Notes: generated by a model not told the origin, from the letters alone. 8,464 nucleotides of DNA from a virus (IMGVR_UViG_2667527591_000013), one strand, 5' to 3'. Positions 320 through 8,464 are shown, counted from the stretch's first letter. Made by a program: numbers and translations.

Positions 320-664
320 ATGAAGAAAAAATACGAACTGGTTGTTAAAGGGATAAATAATTACCCGAATAAGATTACTGTTACTGTGGCACTGGAAATT
401 GGTGGGTATCCGTCACTGTTGTTGCCAGATGTGGCGATTAGTCTTGACCGTACTGAAGATGCCACGCTGGAGTTTTACGAAGCTGAGGCGAAAAAGCAGG
501 CGAAGCAGTTTTTCATGGATGTTGCTGCCGGGTTATGTGAAGGGGATGGTCCGTTGCCGGAAAAGCGCCCCGTAATTTTAGAGGCGCAGGATGTGTTGAT
601 AACCTACAGAGGAAAACTACCGGGAATAATTACTGGTTCTCTGAAGACTCCACCGCTGGCCTGA
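320..664 (+). CDS. Hypothetical protein in lysis cassette, between holin and endolysin (possibly YdfR/DUF1327-like)
   Basis: 114-aa ORF with GGGGAGAG SD-like sequence 8-9 nt upstream of the ATG at 320, tightly coupled to the holin stop. Its position between holin and lysozyme matches the essQ-ydfR-rrrQ arrangement in E. coli lambdoid prophages. The family name is from positional memory only, not a verified match. Confidence 0.6.
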   Translation: MKKKYELVVKGINNYPNKITVTVALEIGGYPSLLLPDVAISLDRTEDATLEFYEAEAKKQAKQFFMDVAAGLCEGDGPLPEKRPVILEAQDVLITYRGKLPGIITGSLKTPPLA

Positions 665-714: not shown

Positions 715-1752
715 ATGAACACCAAAATCAAATACGGCCTGTCGGCTGCCGTTCTGGCGCTGATTGCCGCAGGTGCGCCTGCGCCTGAAATCCTCGACCA
801 GTTTCTGGATGAAAAGGAAGGTAACCACACCACGGCATACCGTGATGGCGCGGGTATCTGGACCATCTGCCGCGGTGCCATCCTGGTGGATAGTAAACCT
901 GTCGTTCCGGGCATGAAGTTGTCGAAGGAAAAATGCGACCAGGTTAACGCCATTGAGCGTGATAAAGCGCTGGCGTGGGTGGAGAAAAACATCAGAGTGC
1001 CGCTGACCGAACCCCAGAAAGCGGGGATCGCGTCATTCTGTCCGTACAACATTGGTCCCGGTAAGTGTTTCCCGTCGACGTTTTACAGACGAATTAATGC
1101 TGGTGATCGCAGGGGAGCATGCGAGGCGATTCGCTGGTGGATTAAGGACGGTGAGCGGTATTTTTTCTGTAATGAGCTGAATGAAAAAGGGGAGCCGGTC
1201 ACCTGGCAGGGGCGGCAATATCAGGCGTACCCGATTGAGGGGAGTGGCTTTGAGATGAACGGAAAGGGCAGCAGTGCCCGCCCGTCGCTGACGGTGTCCA
1301 ATCTTTTCGGCCTTGTCACCGGAATGGCGGAGGATTTGCAGAGCCTGGTGGGGGCCACGGTGGTCCGCCGCCGGGTGTATGCCCGTTTTCTGGATGCGGT
1401 GAATTTCGTTGCGGGCAATCCGGAAGCGGACCCGGAGCAGGAGCTGAGTGACCGCTGGGTGGTGGAGCAGATGTCGCAGCTGACAGCCATGACGGCCTCG
1501 TTTGTGCTGGCCACACCGACCGAGACGGACGGGGCGCTGTTTCCCGGTCGTATCATGCTGGCGAACACCTGTATGTGGACCTACCGCTCTGATGAGTGTG
1601 GTTACACGGGCGGGGCTGTGGCGGATGAGTTCGATAAACCCACCACGGATATCCGTAAGGACAGATGCAGCAAGTGCATGCGCGGGTGTGAACTGCGCAG
1701 GAATGTCGGCAATTTTGGCGGTTTCCTTTCCATTAATAAACTTTCGCAGTAA
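715..1752 (+). CDS. Chimeric ORF: N-terminal SAR-type GH24 phage lysozyme domain (about nt 715-1152) fused in frame to tail-tip protein L (about nt 1153-1752)
   Basis: Residues 1-146 (MNTKIKYGLSAAVLALIAAGAPAP...GACEAIRWWIKDG) have a Gly/Ala-rich SAR-like N-terminal segment and a T4-lysozyme-type E-x8-D-x5-T catalytic spacing (E35, D44, T50), resembling RrrD/RrrQ/R21 endolysins. Residues 147-345 (ERYFFCNELNEKGEPVTWQGRQYQ...NVGNFGGFLSINKLSQ) align nearly colinearly with lambda L from about its residue 33 to its C-terminus, including the C-terminal cysteines. The lysozyme part lacks the last 20 or so residues of typical endolysins. Confidence 0.8.
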   Translation: MNTKIKYGLSAAVLALIAAGAPAPEILDQFLDEKEGNHTTAYRDGAGIWTICRGAILVDSKPVVPGMKLSKEKCDQVNAIERDKALAWVEKNIRVPLTEPQKAGIASFCPYNIGPGKCFPSTFYRRINAGDRRGACEAIRWWIKDGERYFFCNELNEKGEPVTWQGRQYQAYPIEGSGFEMNGKGSSARPSLTVSNLFGLVTGMAEDLQSLVGATVVRRRVYARFLDAVNFVAGNPEADPEQELSDRWVVEQMSQLTAMTASFVLATPTETDGALFPGRIMLANTCMWTYRSDECGYTGGAVADEFDKPTTDIRKDRCSKCMRGCELRRNVGNFGGFLSINKLSQ

Positions 1753-1757
1753 ATCCC

Positions 1758-2501
1758 ATGACAGAGACAGAATCAGCGATTCTGGCGCATGCCCGGCGGT
1801 GTGCGCCTGCGGAGTCGTGCGGCTTCGTGATAAGCACGCCGGAGGGGGAGCGGTATATCCCTTGTGTGAATATTTCCGCAGAGCCGGAGGCGTATTTTCG
1901 TATCGCACCGGAAGACTGGCTGCGGGCAGAGATGCAGGGGGAGATTGTGGCACTGGTCCACAGTCATCCCGGTGGACTGCCCTGGCTGAGCGAGGCCGAC
2001 CGGCGGCTGCAGATAAAAAGCGCACTGCCCTGGTGGCTGGTCAGCCGGGGTGACATTCACAAATTCCGCTGCGTTCCGCACCTGACGGGACGGCGCTTTG
2101 CGCACGGGGTGACGGACTGTTACACGCTGTTCCGGGATGCATACCATCTGGCAGGCATTGATATGCCGGATTTTCATCGCGGGGATGACTGGTGGTGCAA
2201 CGGTCAGAACCTTTACCTGGACAATATGGAGGCAACGGGCTTTTACCGGGTGCCCCTGTCCTCTGCACTGCCGGGCGATATCCTGCTGTGCTGCTTCGGC
2301 GCATCGGTGGCTAATCATGCCGCCATTTACTGCGGCAACGGTGAGCTGCTTCACCATCTGCCTGAACAGCTGAGTAAACGGGAGAGGTATTCCGAAAAAT
2401 GGCAACGACGAACGCATTCTGTCTGGCGTCACCGCCACTGGCACGCATCTGCCTTCACGGGGATTTACAACGATTTGGCCGCCGCCTCAGCCTGTATGTG
2501 A
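1758..2501 (+). CDS. K: Tail tip assembly protein K (JAMM/MPN plus NlpC/P60 domains)
   Basis: 247-aa ORF starting 5 nt after the L stop. It contains the JAMM motif HSHPGGLPWLSEAD (H-x-H-x7-S-x2-D) and an NlpC/P60-like Cys (GVTDCYTLF) with a downstream His (NHAAIY). It matches lambda K from memory (EIVALVHSHPGGLPWLSEADRRLQ, HKFRCVPHLTGRRF). The true start may be internal. It overlaps I by 103 nt in another frame, as lambda K and I overlap. Confidence 0.9.
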   Translation: MTETESAILAHARRCAPAESCGFVISTPEGERYIPCVNISAEPEAYFRIAPEDWLRAEMQGEIVALVHSHPGGLPWLSEADRRLQIKSALPWWLVSRGDIHKFRCVPHLTGRRFAHGVTDCYTLFRDAYHLAGIDMPDFHRGDDWWCNGQNLYLDNMEATGFYRVPLSSALPGDILLCCFGASVANHAAIYCGNGELLHHLPEQLSKRERYSEKWQRRTHSVWRHRHWHASAFTGIYNDLAAASACM

Positions 2502-3079
2502 ACACGGCAGCGGAAGCCATCCGCGCACTGTCGATGCAGGTGCCGGGCTTTCGCCGTCAGATGAACGAAGGCTGGTACCAGATACGCATTGCCGGTGAGG
2601 ATACGGCACCGGAGGCGGTGTATGCCCGCCTTCACGAACCACTGAGTGAGGGAACGGTTATCCATATTGTGCCGCGACTGGCCGGGGCCGGAAAGGGAGG
2701 ACTGCAGATTGTGCTGGGGGCGGCAGCCATCGTGGGCTCTTTCCTCACTGCCGGTGCCTCGATGGCGTTATGGGGTACAGCCCTGAGTGCCGGCGGTTTT
2801 TCTGCCACCACGATGCTGTTTTCACTGGGGGCCAGCATGATTCTGGGTGGTGTGGCCCAGATGCTGGCCCCGAAGGCAAAAACACCGGATTACCGCGCAA
2901 CGGATAACGGCAGACAGAACACGTATTTTTCGTCACTGGACAACATGATTGCCCAGGGTAACCCGATGCCGGTGCCTTACGGGGAAATGCTGGTTGGCTC
3001 CCGCCGTATATCCCAGGACATCAGTACCCGTGATGAAGGCGGGTGCGGAAAGGTCGTGGTTATCGGGCGGCAGGGGTAA
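2399..3079 (+). CDS. I: Tail tip assembly protein I
   Basis: 226-aa ORF. Motifs ARICLHGDLQRFGRR, GWYQIRIAG, VIHIVPRLAGAGKGG, FSLGASMILGGVAQMLAPKAKTP and NTYFSSLDNMIAQGN parallel lambda I as recalled. The hydrophobic Gly/Ala-rich central segment is typical of this protein. Confidence 0.9.
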   Translation: MATTNAFCLASPPLARICLHGDLQRFGRRLSLYVNTAAEAIRALSMQVPGFRRQMNEGWYQIRIAGEDTAPEAVYARLHEPLSEGTVIHIVPRLAGAGKGGLQIVLGAAAIVGSFLTAGASMALWGTALSAGGFSATTMLFSLGASMILGGVAQMLAPKAKTPDYRATDNGRQNTYFSSLDNMIAQGNPMPVPYGEMLVGSRRISQDISTRDEGGCGKVVVIGRQG

Positions 3080-3085
3080 AAAGAA

Positions 3086-3180
3086 TAAAAAAATCCCGCA
3101 GTGATCGCGGAGCTGCGGGGACAGACAAAGATTAGAGTTAAGGAGTTGTTTTTGTTACTCGGGCAAAAAAACACTAACGC
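3086..3180 (-). ncRNA. Candidate small RNA (about 95 nt), antisense, in the I-J intergenic insert
   Basis: It lies between the candidate promoter and the minus-strand terminator. There is no start codon with an SD on the minus strand in this interval. The predicted RNA contains a second internal hairpin (GTTTTT...AAAAAC) and a CUCCUU stretch. Ends are approximate. Confidence 0.3.
3095..3119 (-). terminator. Intrinsic terminator, minus-strand oriented, immediately after the I stop codon
   Basis: Perfect 7-bp stem CCCGCAG(3095-3101)/CTGCGGG(3113-3119) with an 11-nt loop. On the minus strand the stem is followed by ATTTTTTTATTCTTT (complement of + 3080-3094). On the + strand the downstream sequence is not T-rich. 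Confidence 0.6.
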
Positions 3181-3186
3181 AGCGAA

Positions 3187-3214
3187 ATTATACGCGCCAC
3201 AGTCAGTTTGTGAA
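3187..3214 (-). promoter_or_regulatory. Candidate sigma70 promoter on minus strand (-35 TTCACA, 16-bp spacer, -10 TATAAT)
   Basis: The minus strand reads TTCACA (complement of + 3209-3214), a 16-nt spacer, then consensus TATAAT (complement of + 3187-3192). It points leftward toward the terminator at 3095-3119. Confidence 0.4.
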
Positions 3215-3286
3215 AATGTGAAGATATTCAGAATTTTTATGCCATTACCGGTTTTTACCAACAGGATTATCGGTGGACATGAAAGA

Positions 3287-3322
3287 AAACCCCGGTATCT
3301 GCTGATACCGGGGTTTCTCTTT
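3287..3322. terminator. Bidirectional hairpin terminator in the I-J intergenic insert
   Basis: Perfect 12-bp inverted repeat AAACCCCGGTAT(3287-3298)/ATACCGGGGTTT(3305-3316) with a 6-nt loop CTGCTG. The + strand continues TTTCTCTTT; the minus strand continues TTTTCTTTC. Confidence 0.6.
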
Positions 3323-3419
3323 AGCATGGCAGAAATGTGTTTCATGCTTTTCGGGCGAAGGATATCCGACTTCTGTACGGAATGGCAAGTGGCGGTTAAT
3401 TTATTCAGGGGAAGGCTGT

Positions 3420-6400
3420 ATGGGAAAAGGTGGCGGTAAGGCACACACGCCTCGTGAGGCGAAGGATAATCTCAAATCCACGCAGATGATGAGCGTGATT
3501 GATGCGGTTGGTGAGGGACCGATAGAAGGCCCGGTGAAGGGACTGCAGAGTATCCTGGTGAACAAAACCCCGCTGACGGACACGGACGGTAATCCCGTGA
3601 TACACGGTGTGACGGCGGTCTGGCGCGCCGGGGAGCAGGAGCAGACACCACCGGAAGGCTTTGAGTCCTCCGGAGCTGAAACTGTACTGGGCGTGGAAGT
3701 GACGAAGGCAAAACCGGTGACGCGCACCATTACGTCCGCGAACATTGACCGCCTGCGGGTTACCTTCGGGGTGCAGTCACTGGTGCAGACCACGTCAAAG
3801 GGTGACCGAAACCCGACATCCGTCCGCCTGCTGATTCAGTTACAGCGTAACGGTAACTGGGTGACAGAAAAGGATGTCACCATTAACGGCAAGACCACCT
3901 CGCAGTTTCTGGCGTCGGTGATTCTGGATAATCTGCCTCCCCGTCCTTTTAACATCCGGATGGTCCGGGAGACGGCGGACAGCACCACGGACCAGTTGCA
4001 GAACAGAACACTCTGGTCATCGTACACCGAAATCATCGATGTGAAACAGTGCTACCCGAACACGGCGATTGTGGGGCTGCAGGTGGATGCGGAGCAGTTC
4101 GGTGGTCAGCAGATGACGGTGAACTACCATATCCGCGGTCGCATCATCCAGGTGCCGTCAAACTATGACCCGGAAAAACGCACCTACAGCGGTATCTGGG
4201 ACGGCAGTCTGAAACCGGCATACAGCAACAACCCGGCCTGGTGCCTGTGGGACATGCTGACTCACCCGCGCTACGGGATGGGAAAACGCCTGGGGGCGGC
4301 GGATGTGGACAAGTGGGCGCTGTATGCCATCGGGCAGTACTGCGACCAGACGGTCCCGGATGGTTTCGGGGGCACAGAGCCGCGGATGACCTTTAATGCG
4401 TACCTGGCACAACAGCGTAAGGCGTGGGACGTTCTCAGTGATTTCTGCTCGGCGATGCGCTGTATGCCGGTATGGAACGGCCAGACGCTGACGTTCGTTC
4501 AGGACCGCCAGTCGGATGTGGTGTGGCCGTACACGAACAGCGATGTGGTGGTGGATGATAACGGCGTGGGGTTCCGCTACAGCTTCAGTGCCCTGAAGGA
4601 CCGGCACACGGCGGTGGAGGTGAATTACACCGACCCGCAGAACGGCTGGCAGACCTCCACGGAACTGGTGGAAGACCCGGAAGCCATACTGCGCTACGGA
4701 CGCAACCTGCTGAAGATGGATGCGTTCGGCTGCACCAGTCGCGGTCAGGCCCACCGTGCCGGGCTGTGGGTGATAAAGACAGAACTGCTGGAAACGCAGA
4801 CGGTGGATTTCACACTCGGGTCACAGGGGCTGCGGCACACACCGGGTGACATTATTGAAATCTGTGATAACGACTATGCCGGGACTATGACCGGCGGACG
4901 TATCCTGTCCATTGATGCTGCCACCCGCACCCTGACGCTGGACCGTGAGGTTACCCTGCCGGAGACAGGTACATCGGCGGTGAACCTGATTAACGGCAGC
5001 GGTAAGCCGGTGAGTGTGGACATCACCGCACACCCCGCGCCGGACCGGATACAGGTCAGTACCCTGCCTGATGGTGTGGAGACATACGGTGTGTGGGGAC
5101 TCTCCCTGCCGTCACTGCGCCGTCGCCTGTTCCGCTGTGTCTCCATCCGGGAAAACACGGACGGCACCTTTGCCATCACGGCGGTGCAGCACGTACCGGA
5201 AAAAGAAGCCATTGTGGATAACGGAGCCCGCTTTGAGCCGCAGTCAGGCACCCTGAACAGCGTTATCCCACCGGCAGTACAGCACCTCACGGTGGAGGTG
5301 AGCGCAGCTGACAGCCAGTATCTGGCGCTGGCGAAATGGGACACGCCGAGGGTGGTGAAGGGCGTGCGCTTCAGTCTGCGCCTGACCAGTGGAAGCGATG
5401 AGAACAGCCGCCTGCTGACCACCGCCATCACTGCCGATACGGAGCACCGTTTCAGTGGCCTGCCTCTCGGGGAATACACCCTGACGGTCAGGGCGATAAA
5501 CAGCTACGGCCAGCAGGGCGAACCCGCCACCACCACGTTCCGGATTAACGCACCGGCAGCGCCTGCCGGTGTTGAACTGACGCCGGGGTATTTTCAGATA
5601 ACGGCAGTCCCGAAACTGACCATTTATGACCCGACGGTGCAGTTTGAGTTCTGGTTTTCGGAGGCAAAAATTGCAGACGCCGCACAGGTGGAAACCTCTG
5701 CCCGTTATCTGGGGACCGGCAGTCAGTGGAGTGTCTCCGGTCCGCACATTAAGCCCGGAAAGGATTTCTGGTTTTATGTGCGCAGCGTCAACCTGGTGGG
5801 TAAATCTGCTTTTGTGGAAGCCAGTGGACGGGCGAGCAATGATGCTGCGGGCTATCTGGAACTTTTCCGGGAAAAGATAGGAAAAACGCATCTGGCAGAG
5901 GCGCTGTGGGCAGAGATTGACAACAGTCAGCTGAAGGACGAGATGGCGGAAATGCAGACCACCATCACAGAAACCCGCAATGAAATCACACAGACGGTCA
6001 GTAAAACGCTGGAGGACCAGAGCGCCACCATACAGCAGATACAGCGCGTGCAGAAGGACACAAATGATGACCTTGCTGCACTTTACATGCTGAAGGTACA
6101 GAAAACAAAAAATGGCATACCCTATGTTGCCGGTATTGGAGCGGGGATTGAGGATACTGATGGCCAGCCCCTGAGCAACATACTGCTGCTGGCTGACCGT
6201 ATTGCGATGATTAACCCGGAGGACGGCAACACCACGCCGTTATTTGTGGCGCAGGGGAATCAGTTGTTCATGAACGATGTGTTCCTGAAGCGGCTGTTTG
6301 CGGTGAGTATCACCTCGTCCGGCAATCCCCCTACGTTCTCCCTGACGCCGGAAGGCAGGCTGACGGCCCGTAATGCGGATATCAGCGGACATATCAGTGC

Positions 6401-6950
6401 GAACTCGGGCACGCTGAATAATGTCGTGATAGCGGAGAACTGTACCATCAAAGGTACTCTGAGAGCGGAAAATATCATTGGCGATGTGGTGAAAACGCAC
6501 AATGTCAGTCTTCCTGATCTCAGGGCTGCAGGGGAGCACAGACACGCGACAGAACGAACGGTTACTGTCATTGATGATCAGTCGTTTGACCGGAATATTG
6601 TTATCCCGCCGGTTTTTTATTCCGGTATTATCTACAAAGGAAGTGATGGTGACGGTGCGACCTCAATCTGTACGCTGACGGTGAGTGTGAATGATCGGGT
6701 GGTGTTCAGCAAAACCTCATCCATCGGTACCAGGCGTACGTCAGGGGGATACCCCGTTCAGGAAGACACCATATATCCCGGGTCATCCACTCCGTTCAGC
6801 TATTTCATGAGGATGGCGTCAGGGGGAGGTGATGTCAGGATCAAGTTCCGGATTGAGGTCATCTATTATGGAACTGCACCGGGTTTTATGACCACAGGGA
6901 TACAGATCACAACGATGAAGGCGTCAGCTTCAGGATTTGTGGAAAGTTAA
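3420..6950 (+). CDS. J: Central tail fiber / host specificity protein J (tail tip attachment protein)
   Basis: 1176-aa ORF with GGAAGG SD 6-7 nt upstream of the ATG. It is colinear with lambda J (1132 aa) through the N-terminal and central regions ([22 protein letters not shown]..., [76 protein letters not shown]...NADISG...[14 protein letters not shown]). The last 150 or so residues (from about nt 6496) diverge from lambda's LamB-binding C-terminus. Confidence 0.95.
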
Positions 6951-7271
6951 TCCCGGACGATCGTGATTGCCGGAAGGAGACAAAAACCGCACAGTATGCG
7001 CGGGTGCCTTTGGCTGATGGCCGGAGGGAACACCTGAAAGCCTGATGTGAAAAGGCCCCGAGTCAACTTCAATGTTAACCCGAGGCCCTGATCCGTCTAT
7101 CTTAAGCAAGTGGCAGGTTAGCGCCTCTCCGTAATAAGGAGCAAGTGCTGTGTCGCAAAAACCACCGTGATTTGTATCACTGTAGTGCTCATTATCTGGA
7201 TCACCCACCGTTCACTGTGTGAATTCCGGTTCCGGATAGCACCTTTTTAATCCTGTAAACCACGATTTTTA

Positions 7272-7306
7272 CCGCAGACCGGGAAACCGGCACTGCGGTT
7301 TTTTTT
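7272..7306 (+). terminator. Rho-independent terminator ending 14 nt upstream of the stf-like start codon
   Basis: Stem CCGCAG(7272-7277)/CTGCGG(7293-7298) enclosing an inner CCGG-GAAA-CCGG hairpin, followed by eight T's (7299-7306). Confidence 0.7.
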
Positions 7307-7319
7307 ATGGGGAAAATCT

Positions 7320-8464
7320 ATGACAGTCAGAATATCGGGCGTGCTGAAGGACGGCACCGGGAAGCCGGTACCGGGATGCACCATTGAACTGAAAGCCCTG
7401 CGCACCACGGAGACAGTGATTGTCACCACGGTGGCGCAGGGGCAGCCGGGGGAAACCGGCAGTTACAGTTTTGATGTGGAGCCGGGGTGGTACCGGGTGA
7501 CGCTGAACACGGAAGGGTACGCCCCGTCGTATGTGGGTGACATTCTGGTGAAGGCGGATTCTGAGCCGGGAACGCTGAATAAATTTCTGATGGAACAGGA
7601 TGAGGCGCAGTATTACCCGAAAGCGCTTGCAGAGCTGGAAGCGGTGGCAGCGGAAATCCTGAAGCGTGCTGAAGCGTCGGCGGCGAGTGCAGAGGAAGCG
7701 AAGAAACGGGCAGAGAATGCCCGGGGACCGGCGGGCGAGAAGGGGGACACAGGTCCACAGGGTGCCACAGGGGCAAAGGGACCAGCCGGGGCAACGGGGG
7801 CGGTCGGACCAAAAGGTGAGCCGGGGCCAAAGGGAGAACGGGGAGAAACAGGTCCACAGGGACCGAAGGGCGATAAAGGTGACCCGGGCGGACCGCCGGG
7901 GCCGAAAGGTGACACCGGCCCACGTGGAGAGGCCGGACCACCCGGACCACAGGGTCCGGCAGGGCAAACCGGCCCGAAAGGGGATAAAGGTGAACCCGGC
8001 GCAACAGGTCCGGCAGGTCCCGCAGGCCCTCGGGGAGAAACCGGCCCCGCAGGTCCTGCGGGTCCCGCAGGCAGTGTCGCCAGTGTTCCGGATGCCAGCA
8101 CATCACAGAAAGGTGTTGTACAGCTGAGCAGCGATACCAACAGCGATGATGAAACAAAAGCGGCAACCCCAAAGGCTGTGAAAGCGGTAATGGCAGAAGT
8201 GCAGGCAGCAAAAACGAAGGCAGAAGAGGCAGCAACCCGGGCAGCAGTCCCCGGACCGAAGGGGGACAGGGGGGAACCTGGCGCACCTGGTGCAGTGGGG
8301 CCAGCAGGCCCACGGGGACCGGCTGGTGCAGCTGGTCCCAAAGGTGATGCAGGCCCGGCAGGCCCCGCAGGAAAGGATGGTACCGCCGGAGCGGAAGGTA
8401 AGGCAGGTCCGGCAGGGCCACGAGGTGAAAGGGGACCAGCGGGGGCACAGGGTGTTCCGGGGCC
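7320..8464 (+). CDS. Side tail fiber protein (Stf-like) with collagen-like Gly-X-Y repeats; 5' partial, runs off the window end
   Basis: ATG at 7320 with GGGGA SD 6 nt upstream. The open frame reaches the window end without a stop, so it is absent from the supplied ORF track. The N-terminus [26 protein letters not shown] parallels lambda Stf ([17 protein letters not shown]...). The conserved motif [30 protein letters not shown] is present, flanked by two Gly-X-Y blocks. Confidence 0.85.
7725..8072 (+). repeat. Collagen-like Gly-X-Y triplet repeat block 1 within the stf-like gene
   Basis: About 37 consecutive G-X-Y triplets ([19 protein letters not shown]...[10 protein letters not shown]) with a single one-residue interruption at [10 protein letters not shown]. 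The DNA shows a 9-bp periodicity of GGN-CCN-NNN. Confidence 0.85.
8253..8464 (+). repeat. Collagen-like Gly-X-Y triplet repeat block 2 within the stf-like gene (continues past window end)
   Basis: [70 protein letters not shown], uninterrupted to the window end. Confidence 0.85.

Follow-up and report, generated by a model that had tools for sequence, protein, structure and literature searches.

The open reading frame at positions 7320 to 8464 (plus strand) very probably belongs to a lambdoid side tail fibre gene (stf) of the EPclC type, with a collagen-like shaft, and makes up its 5' three-quarters. It lies at the end of the window, by which we mean the whole stretch of DNA analysed (8,464 nucleotides), and the window itself makes up all 8464 bp of contig CCCK01002554.1 in the draft assembly GCA_000944435.1. 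The frame holds 381 codons with no in-frame stop (translation of 7320-8462), and the other two plus-strand frames of the region contain 13 and 18 stops. The product was assigned to PHROG 366, tail fiber protein, with an E value of 2.6e-105; Pfam matches and an allele in E. coli NCTC9112 agree with this assignment. The initial annotation described the second collagen run as continuing past the window. That run does reach the last codon, but position 8464 is the end of the contig, indicating that the cut in the repeat region is an assembly break and not a biological lesion. The C-terminal tip and the remainder of the second run are absent from the contig, and the reading of this copy covers the 381 codons present.

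The protein begins with a PfN domain (aa 1-134; 7320..7721, plus strand, as are all features of the gene). This domain matches the full profile, 1-134, of PF08400 (phage_tail_N) at an E value of 4.4e-42 and is 52% identical over aa 1-131 to lambda orf-401, the N-terminal part of Stf (BLASTP; E value, 4e-39). Residues 1-91 also match the Ur-lambda tail fiber chain gpStfN (PDB 9e7m; E value, 2.7e-28). Within PfN, a beta-sandwich "collar" domain (aa 1 to about 94) is followed by a helix (aa 98-133), which likely serves as a short trimeric coiled-coil neck. The first collagen run comes next and consists of 18 Gly-X-Y triplets (run 1a, aa 136-189; 7725..7886; PF01391), a length that is constant in nine of nine close alleles, and 20 more triplets of polymorphic length (run 1b, aa 191-250; 7890..8069), after which stands GSV. 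Between the two parts lies the motif G-D-P-G-G-P-P-G (aa 187-194; 7878..7901), in which an extra Gly codon (G190, 7887-7889) displaces the triplet register by one residue. The Phage_fiber_2 (Pf2) repeat, KGVVQLSS...TPKAVKAV (aa 260-301; 8097..8222; PF03406; E value, 2.4e-16), is a non-collagen node separating both collagen runs; it shares 56% identity with the Pf2 motif of lambda Stf (BLASTP; E value, 3e-12), and its region weakly matches phage Mu tail fiber protein S (PDB 5yvq). A predicted alpha-helix rich in Ala, Lys, and Glu (aa 283-307; 8166..8240) links Pf2 to the second run, of which the contig holds, by repeat count, the first 23 triplets (aa 312-380) plus G381 (8253..8462); the closest full-length alleles have 31-39.

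Much of this layout had been recognised from the initial reading of the sequence. The Stf-like N-terminal domain and the KGVVQLSS...TPKAVKAV motif were both confirmed, as PF08400, PF03406, and PF01391 each score far over the cut-off and the matches to PDB 9e7m and lambda Stf point the same way. Alignment with lambda Stf likewise placed the collagen-like shaft where lambda has its Ala/Ser-rich segment, and the single one-residue interruption of the triplet register proved to be G190. The triplet counts given there, about 37 and then at least 23, were exact for the second run but slightly low for the first, which has 38 triplets in total (39 counting GSV). The collagen match itself has an E value of 3.7e-28 (PF01391), with Gly at every third residue through runs of 18, 20, and 23 triplets. 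The X position is occupied by Pro in 46.8% of triplets and by Asp/Glu in 25.8%, and the Y position by Ala (30.6%), Lys/Arg (29%), Thr (12.9%), and Pro (12.9%). An AF2 monomer model of the 381 aa, built on a 17-sequence alignment, had a pLDDT of 43 and served for secondary-structure hints only; at this low confidence it gave six strands and the helices at aa 98-133 and 283-307, and it says nothing on the trimer.

The periodicity was compared with that of 2,000 composition-preserving shuffles, in which the longest Gly-every-third run reached a maximum of 8 (mean, 3.2) against 23 in the protein. The collagen-coding DNA is not a simple tandem repeat: 60 of its 61 nine-base units are distinct, and TRF returned merely 2- to 2.7-copy scraps of 9 bp and no long array. 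The initial annotation had named a low-complexity assembly artefact as what would overturn its reading. Although the contig ends within the repeat region and belongs to a draft of thousands of contigs, we give such an artefact next to no probability. The same structure is present at 99-99.6% identity in closed genomes and in one phage genome, the frame is open only in the Gly-X-Y register, and nearly all of the nine-base units are distinct. A low-complexity origin is refuted by the closed genomes, 43 of the complete E. coli genomes having sequence at least 95% identical. On the minus strand, three long ORFs (220, 341, and 242 aa; 7305-8448) overlap the collagen-coding region in antisense, and the minus frames there have 1-2 stops each. 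They are a by-product of stop-poor, GC-rich Gly-Pro-Ala periodic coding and not genes.

The prophage collagen-like proteins of enterohemorrhagic strains (EHEC) were defined as EPclA to EPclD by Ghosh et al. (2012, PLoS One e37872; PMC3368898). The EPclC type has the order PfN-Col-Pf2-Col, no PCoil, and a non-PfC C terminus, and its examples are ECED1_2081 (520 aa; Col domains of 118 and 117 aa) and ORF-401 of prophage P-EibA (479 aa; Col domains of 117 and 75 aa) (PMC3368898). Across these proteins (EPclP), Col lengths vary by multiples of three residues, the X position is rich in Pro, and the Y position is rich in Lys/Arg, Ala, Thr, and Gln with little Pro (PMC3368898). The protein studied here has a PfN domain and then two (Gly-X-Y)n domains with Pf2 between them. 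Its collagen begins at aa 136 and the PF08400 match ends at aa 134, leaving no long Ala/Ser-rich PCoil. The first run carries the conserved one-residue interruption at aa 187-194, and the X/Y composition fits the published EPclP table. The class was thus correctly described at the outset as known from prophages of pathogenic E. coli (PMC3368898), and the protein class, the domain order, the interruption, and length variation in triplet steps were all already published in 2012.

The gene is real but ordinary and carries little weight as a discovery, and dozens of complete E. coli genomes have an annotated gene nearly identical to it. The 1145-nt query matched 150 of 5426 such genomes, in 38 of which at least 80% of the query was covered, and E. 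coli genomes with a match had a median of three matching places. Among 5.8 billion proteins searched, 422 matched at an E value of 1e-40 or below; PF08400 and PF01391 were found in 120 of the 120 matches listed and PF03406 in all but one of those. Full-length close alleles in complete genomes encode 517-521 aa at 99-99.6% nucleotide identity. The best complete-genome match, in E. coli NCTC9112 (99.6% nucleotide identity), is an intact 517-aa ORF (L001 14090-15643) with no stop or frameshift, in which a second collagen run of about 38 triplets precedes a C-terminal domain of about 95 aa. This tip had no Pfam or PDB sequence match, and the PHROGs search gave nothing useful. PF06820 (PfC) was absent from the NCTC9112 protein by Pfam, and tips are swapped just beyond the position at which our contig ends. 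The NCTC9112 allele also has a Gly-to-Cys change at a Gly position of run 1a (GDK-CDP-G), which would locally break the triple helix and reflects a sequencing error or else a defect that is tolerated. The gene was further found at 99% identity (520 aa) in the sequenced phage PhiR12_2, whose record gives E. coli K-12 MG1655 as the host; a literature search on this phage found nothing relevant.

The gene that would follow stf lies off our contig. Of eight complete-genome alleles examined, seven have a DUF4376 gene (PHROG "tail fiber") that starts 17-20 nt past the stop codon; in the KY179 allele it begins 350 nt beyond the stop. A YadA-anchor gene (Eib-like immunoglobulin-binding autotransporter) lies further downstream in three complete genomes, NCTC9112 (region after stf, L001 15660-17855), STEC17-183, and JE86-ST05. 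The prophages of these three strains are P-Eib type, which fits the P-EibA ORF-401 example of EPclC. The SCU-104 allele (L005 1501-2685) is annotated as two pseudogene fragments, and its translation has an internal stop, i.e., it is a disrupted copy.

Nine close alleles, 99% identical outside indels, were compared over the span present on the contig. All eight indels among them were multiples of 9 nt (9, 9, 27, 36, 45, 54, 54, and 63), and each was bounded by direct-repeat microhomology of 4-9 nt. Seven of the eight fell in run 1b (where other alleles have deletions of 27, 45, and 63 nt) or in run 2 (where the deletions measure 9, 36, and 54 nt), and the eighth, a deletion of 9 nt, fell in the linker past run 1b. 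Run 1a and the interruption were invariant in all nine. The copy-number comparison across strains therefore bears out the repeat-number variation proposed earlier: close alleles differ by 1-7 whole triplets, and across the 120 homologues listed the second run has anywhere from 18 to 60 triplets. The motif G.PGGP.G recurs in those listed homologues whose first collagen run is in two parts, and the one-residue interruption is not peculiar to this gene. The kink suggested in the initial annotation may form there.

At least five unrelated C termini occur on the same N-terminal scaffold among the 120 homologues listed. Two alleles with different tips were 100% identical to about nucleotide 1140 of the gene, identity then decayed within run 2, and it returned about 65 codons into the DUF4376 gene. 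This pattern indicates that the tip and the start of the partner gene were exchanged as a cassette, with the crossover in the collagen repeats. The breakpoint lies inside run 2, just past the end of our contig. It is possible, though rather unlikely, that the collagen-coding array is an evolvability device, in which 9-nt slippage tunes fibre length and in-register crossovers allow tip cassettes to be exchanged. If so, slippage at the 4- to 9-nt direct repeats would change the fibre in steps of about 0.86 nm, and the distal collagen, the receptor-binding tip, and the first 65 or so DUF4376 codons would move as one cassette. The invariant GxPGGPxG motif and the length-invariant first 18 triplets would then be a fixed functional hinge or docking element, and fibre length might match the depth of the host O antigen or capsule.

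The contig as a whole is a lambdoid prophage fragment. A P21-type holin gene (100-315) is followed by a DUF1327 gene (320-664, plus strand; PHROG 406, unknown function), which lies between the holin and endolysin of the lysis cassette. The next ORF (715-1752, plus strand; 345 aa) is an endolysin::gpL fusion with Phage_lysozyme at aa 33-147 and Phage_tail_L at aa 146-343; its junction is near nucleotide 1150, and its endolysin part is of the Qin/933W type. Such a fusion implies that about 20 kb has been deleted, from Rz through M, comprising Rz, the terminase, the head genes, and most tail genes. Beyond it stand K (1758-2501), I (about 2498-3079), and J (3420..6950, plus strand), which encodes a tail tip/central fibre protein of 1176 aa (Pfam FNIII-A_GpJ, Phage-tail_3, Ig_J, Phage_Tail_Tip, and Ig_GpJ_C). 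J is directly upstream of stf and fixes the synteny J-(lom)-stf.

The prophage on this contig appears defective by virtue of the endolysin::gpL fusion, and the stf copy may therefore never be assembled onto its own virion. Taken further, the gene could be an unused relic in a decaying, non-inducible prophage, kept only as recombination material for other lambdoid prophages. In the fusion ORF, endolysin aa 1 to about 146 are joined in frame to gpL, and the same exact 345-aa protein occurs on three independent draft assemblies (GCA_000944435.1, GCA_001373195.1, and GCA_000936715.1). Its junction was not found in any complete E. coli genome, which, with disrupted alleles such as the SCU-104 pseudogene and the several matching places per genome noted above, speaks for decay. 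However, no stop interrupts the 381 codons, their identity to intact alleles is 99-99.6%, and the K, I, and J genes that follow the fusion are intact. The fibre could also be used in trans by another lambdoid phage resident in the same cell, and the junction could be a systematic mis-join common to three drafts that are all very fragmented. We consider that the relic reading falls a little short of an even chance.

Between I and J, a 340-nt insert of lower GC content (0.45; 3080-3419) is unannotated and absent from lambda; of 5426 complete E. coli genomes, 1649 have it, as do Stx1a, Stx2c, and Stx2a phages. Its minus strand carries a near-consensus sigma-70 promoter, TTCACA-16-TATAAT (3214->3187), followed by a hairpin with T7 (3111->3095), an arrangement that suggests a candidate sRNA some 90 nt long. 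The same insert contains a perfect 14-bp hairpin (3286-3317) and gave no Rfam match. An identity with AgvB/AsxR was rejected, as these lie 3' of PR'. The candidate could be PasB, described as lying within a phage structural operon, to which it is likened by description only.

The gap between J and stf holds a hok/sok-like type I toxin-antitoxin remnant (7002-7250, plus strand) where lambda has lom. Its sok portion (7002-7161) matched the full-length Rfam model RF01794 below threshold (score, 32.5 bits; gathering score, 59; E value, 2e-4). A 27-codon ORF at 7167-7250 (MICITVVLIIWITHRSLCEFRFRIAPF) scored 25.9 bits with Pfam Hok/Gef (cut-off, 22 bits) over profile positions 9-30 of 42 and is probably a truncated toxin. 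Further on, a hairpin with T8 (7271..7306, plus strand) resembles an intrinsic terminator (-19.1 kcal/mol; z score, -3.7; 0 of 200 shuffles as stable) and is probably the terminator of the hok-like unit. It stands 14 nt upstream of the stf ATG, with a Shine-Dalgarno-like GGGGA at 7309-7313 in between. With a terminator-like hairpin in this position, stf expression would need read-through by Q-type late-operon antitermination.

This placement bears on a different role for the product, as a bacterial-benefit "moron", that is, a surface protein that mimics collagen or serves as an adhesin towards the animal host, and not a phage fibre. Collagen-like surface proteins serve in this way in Gram-positive bacteria, BclA is among the PDB matches, and in related prophages an adhesin gene of the YadA-anchor (Eib-like) kind lies two genes downstream. 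However, the ORF product has no signal peptide or anchor, and its N terminus is the Stf tail-collar domain. The gene occupies the J-stf-tfa position, is carried by the sequenced phage PhiR12_2, and is separated by the terminator from any upstream lysogenic transcription. An adhesin role is accordingly very improbable, and we return to the product as a tail fibre.

As such a fibre, the protein would be built as follows. Residues 1 to about 94 would fold, by homology with the arrangement shown for lambda, as the Stf collar domain that rings the tail at the gpV/gpM junction, and the helix at aa 98-133 would gather three chains as a short neck. The Gly-X-Y runs, with a Pro-rich X position and charged, Ala, or Thr residues at Y, may form a homotrimeric collagen triple helix like the one shown for the related EPclA. 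At 0.288 nm per residue, the helix would be a thin rigid spacer of about 33 nm in run 1 and of similar length in run 2 of the full-length alleles. We infer a shaft of two segments of about 33 nm, joined by the Pf2 node and trimerised via the neck helix and the collagen runs. The GxPGGPxG interruption and the Pf2 node are likely flexible points or hinges. A C-terminal globular tip, coded past the contig end, would bind a cell-surface receptor and so speed adsorption, and the DUF4376 protein coded beside it probably assists the tip. The collagen DNA gains or loses whole 9-nt units at short direct repeats and provides the crossover point for the tip-plus-partner cassette. The gene has some modest practical value. 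Because tips recombine in the collagen run, it matters for efforts to predict or engineer which hosts lambdoid phages, including Stx-converting ones, can infect. Short-read assemblies break within these collagen repeats, and the tip that determines host range is in consequence systematically lost from draft contigs.

Among known systems, there is a likeness to trimeric fibres with a short triple-helical Gly-X-Y spacer that gave weak PDB matches: the upper fibre gp68 of Staphylococcus aureus phage 80alpha (6v8i), a streptococcal prophage hyaluronidase (6x3m), and Bacillus anthracis BclA (1wck). All three differ in having unrelated flanking domains, much shorter collagen runs, and other hosts. 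The likeness to Stf of lambda and Ur-lambda takes in the N-terminal collar domain, the Pf2 motif, and the late-operon position after J. In Ur-lambda, Stf residues 1-94 form a six-strand beta sheet and a helix, twelve copies (four trimers) make the collar at the gpV/gpM junction and are joined to a trimeric bundle, and the side fibres accelerate adsorption through OmpC (PMC12617516). A trimer and four fibres per tail would be expected for our protein by analogy. However, lambda Stf has an Ala/Ser-rich coiled coil of about 210 aa where this protein has its first collagen run, and lambda has lom between J and stf, which is missing from our contig. The distal part of lambda Stf resembles T4 gp37 and binds OmpC, whereas the tip of the nearest alleles is unrelated to it by sequence and is probably different from the gp37-like OmpC-binding tip.

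EPclA and EPclB (e.g., ECs2717 and Z1483 of phage 933W) share with our protein the PfN and collagen domains and, in EPclB, also Pf2. The recombinant form of EPclA is trimeric, folds as a collagen triple helix (Tm, 42 C), and has the outline of a dumbbell, as would suit a side tail fibre; the triple helix was demonstrated by CD, AUC, and EM for EPclA only (PMC3368898). EPclA and EPclB differ from our protein in having an Ala/Ser-rich PCoil of 109-116 aa that separates PfN from Col, and also PfC (PF06820), a trimerisation domain at the C terminus. In contrast, our protein passes from PfN directly into collagen, and its relatives are without PfC. From EPclC, by its published description, nothing substantive differs within the part present on the contig. 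The domain order, the lack of a long PCoil, and the X/Y preferences are those described for ECED1_2081 and P-EibA (compared by description, not aligned), as is a first Col domain of about 116-118 aa with a G-x-P-G-G-P-x-G interruption. The closest full-length alleles extend the likeness to EPclC, with 517-521 aa, a C terminus without a Pfam match, and a YadA/Eib-like gene downstream.
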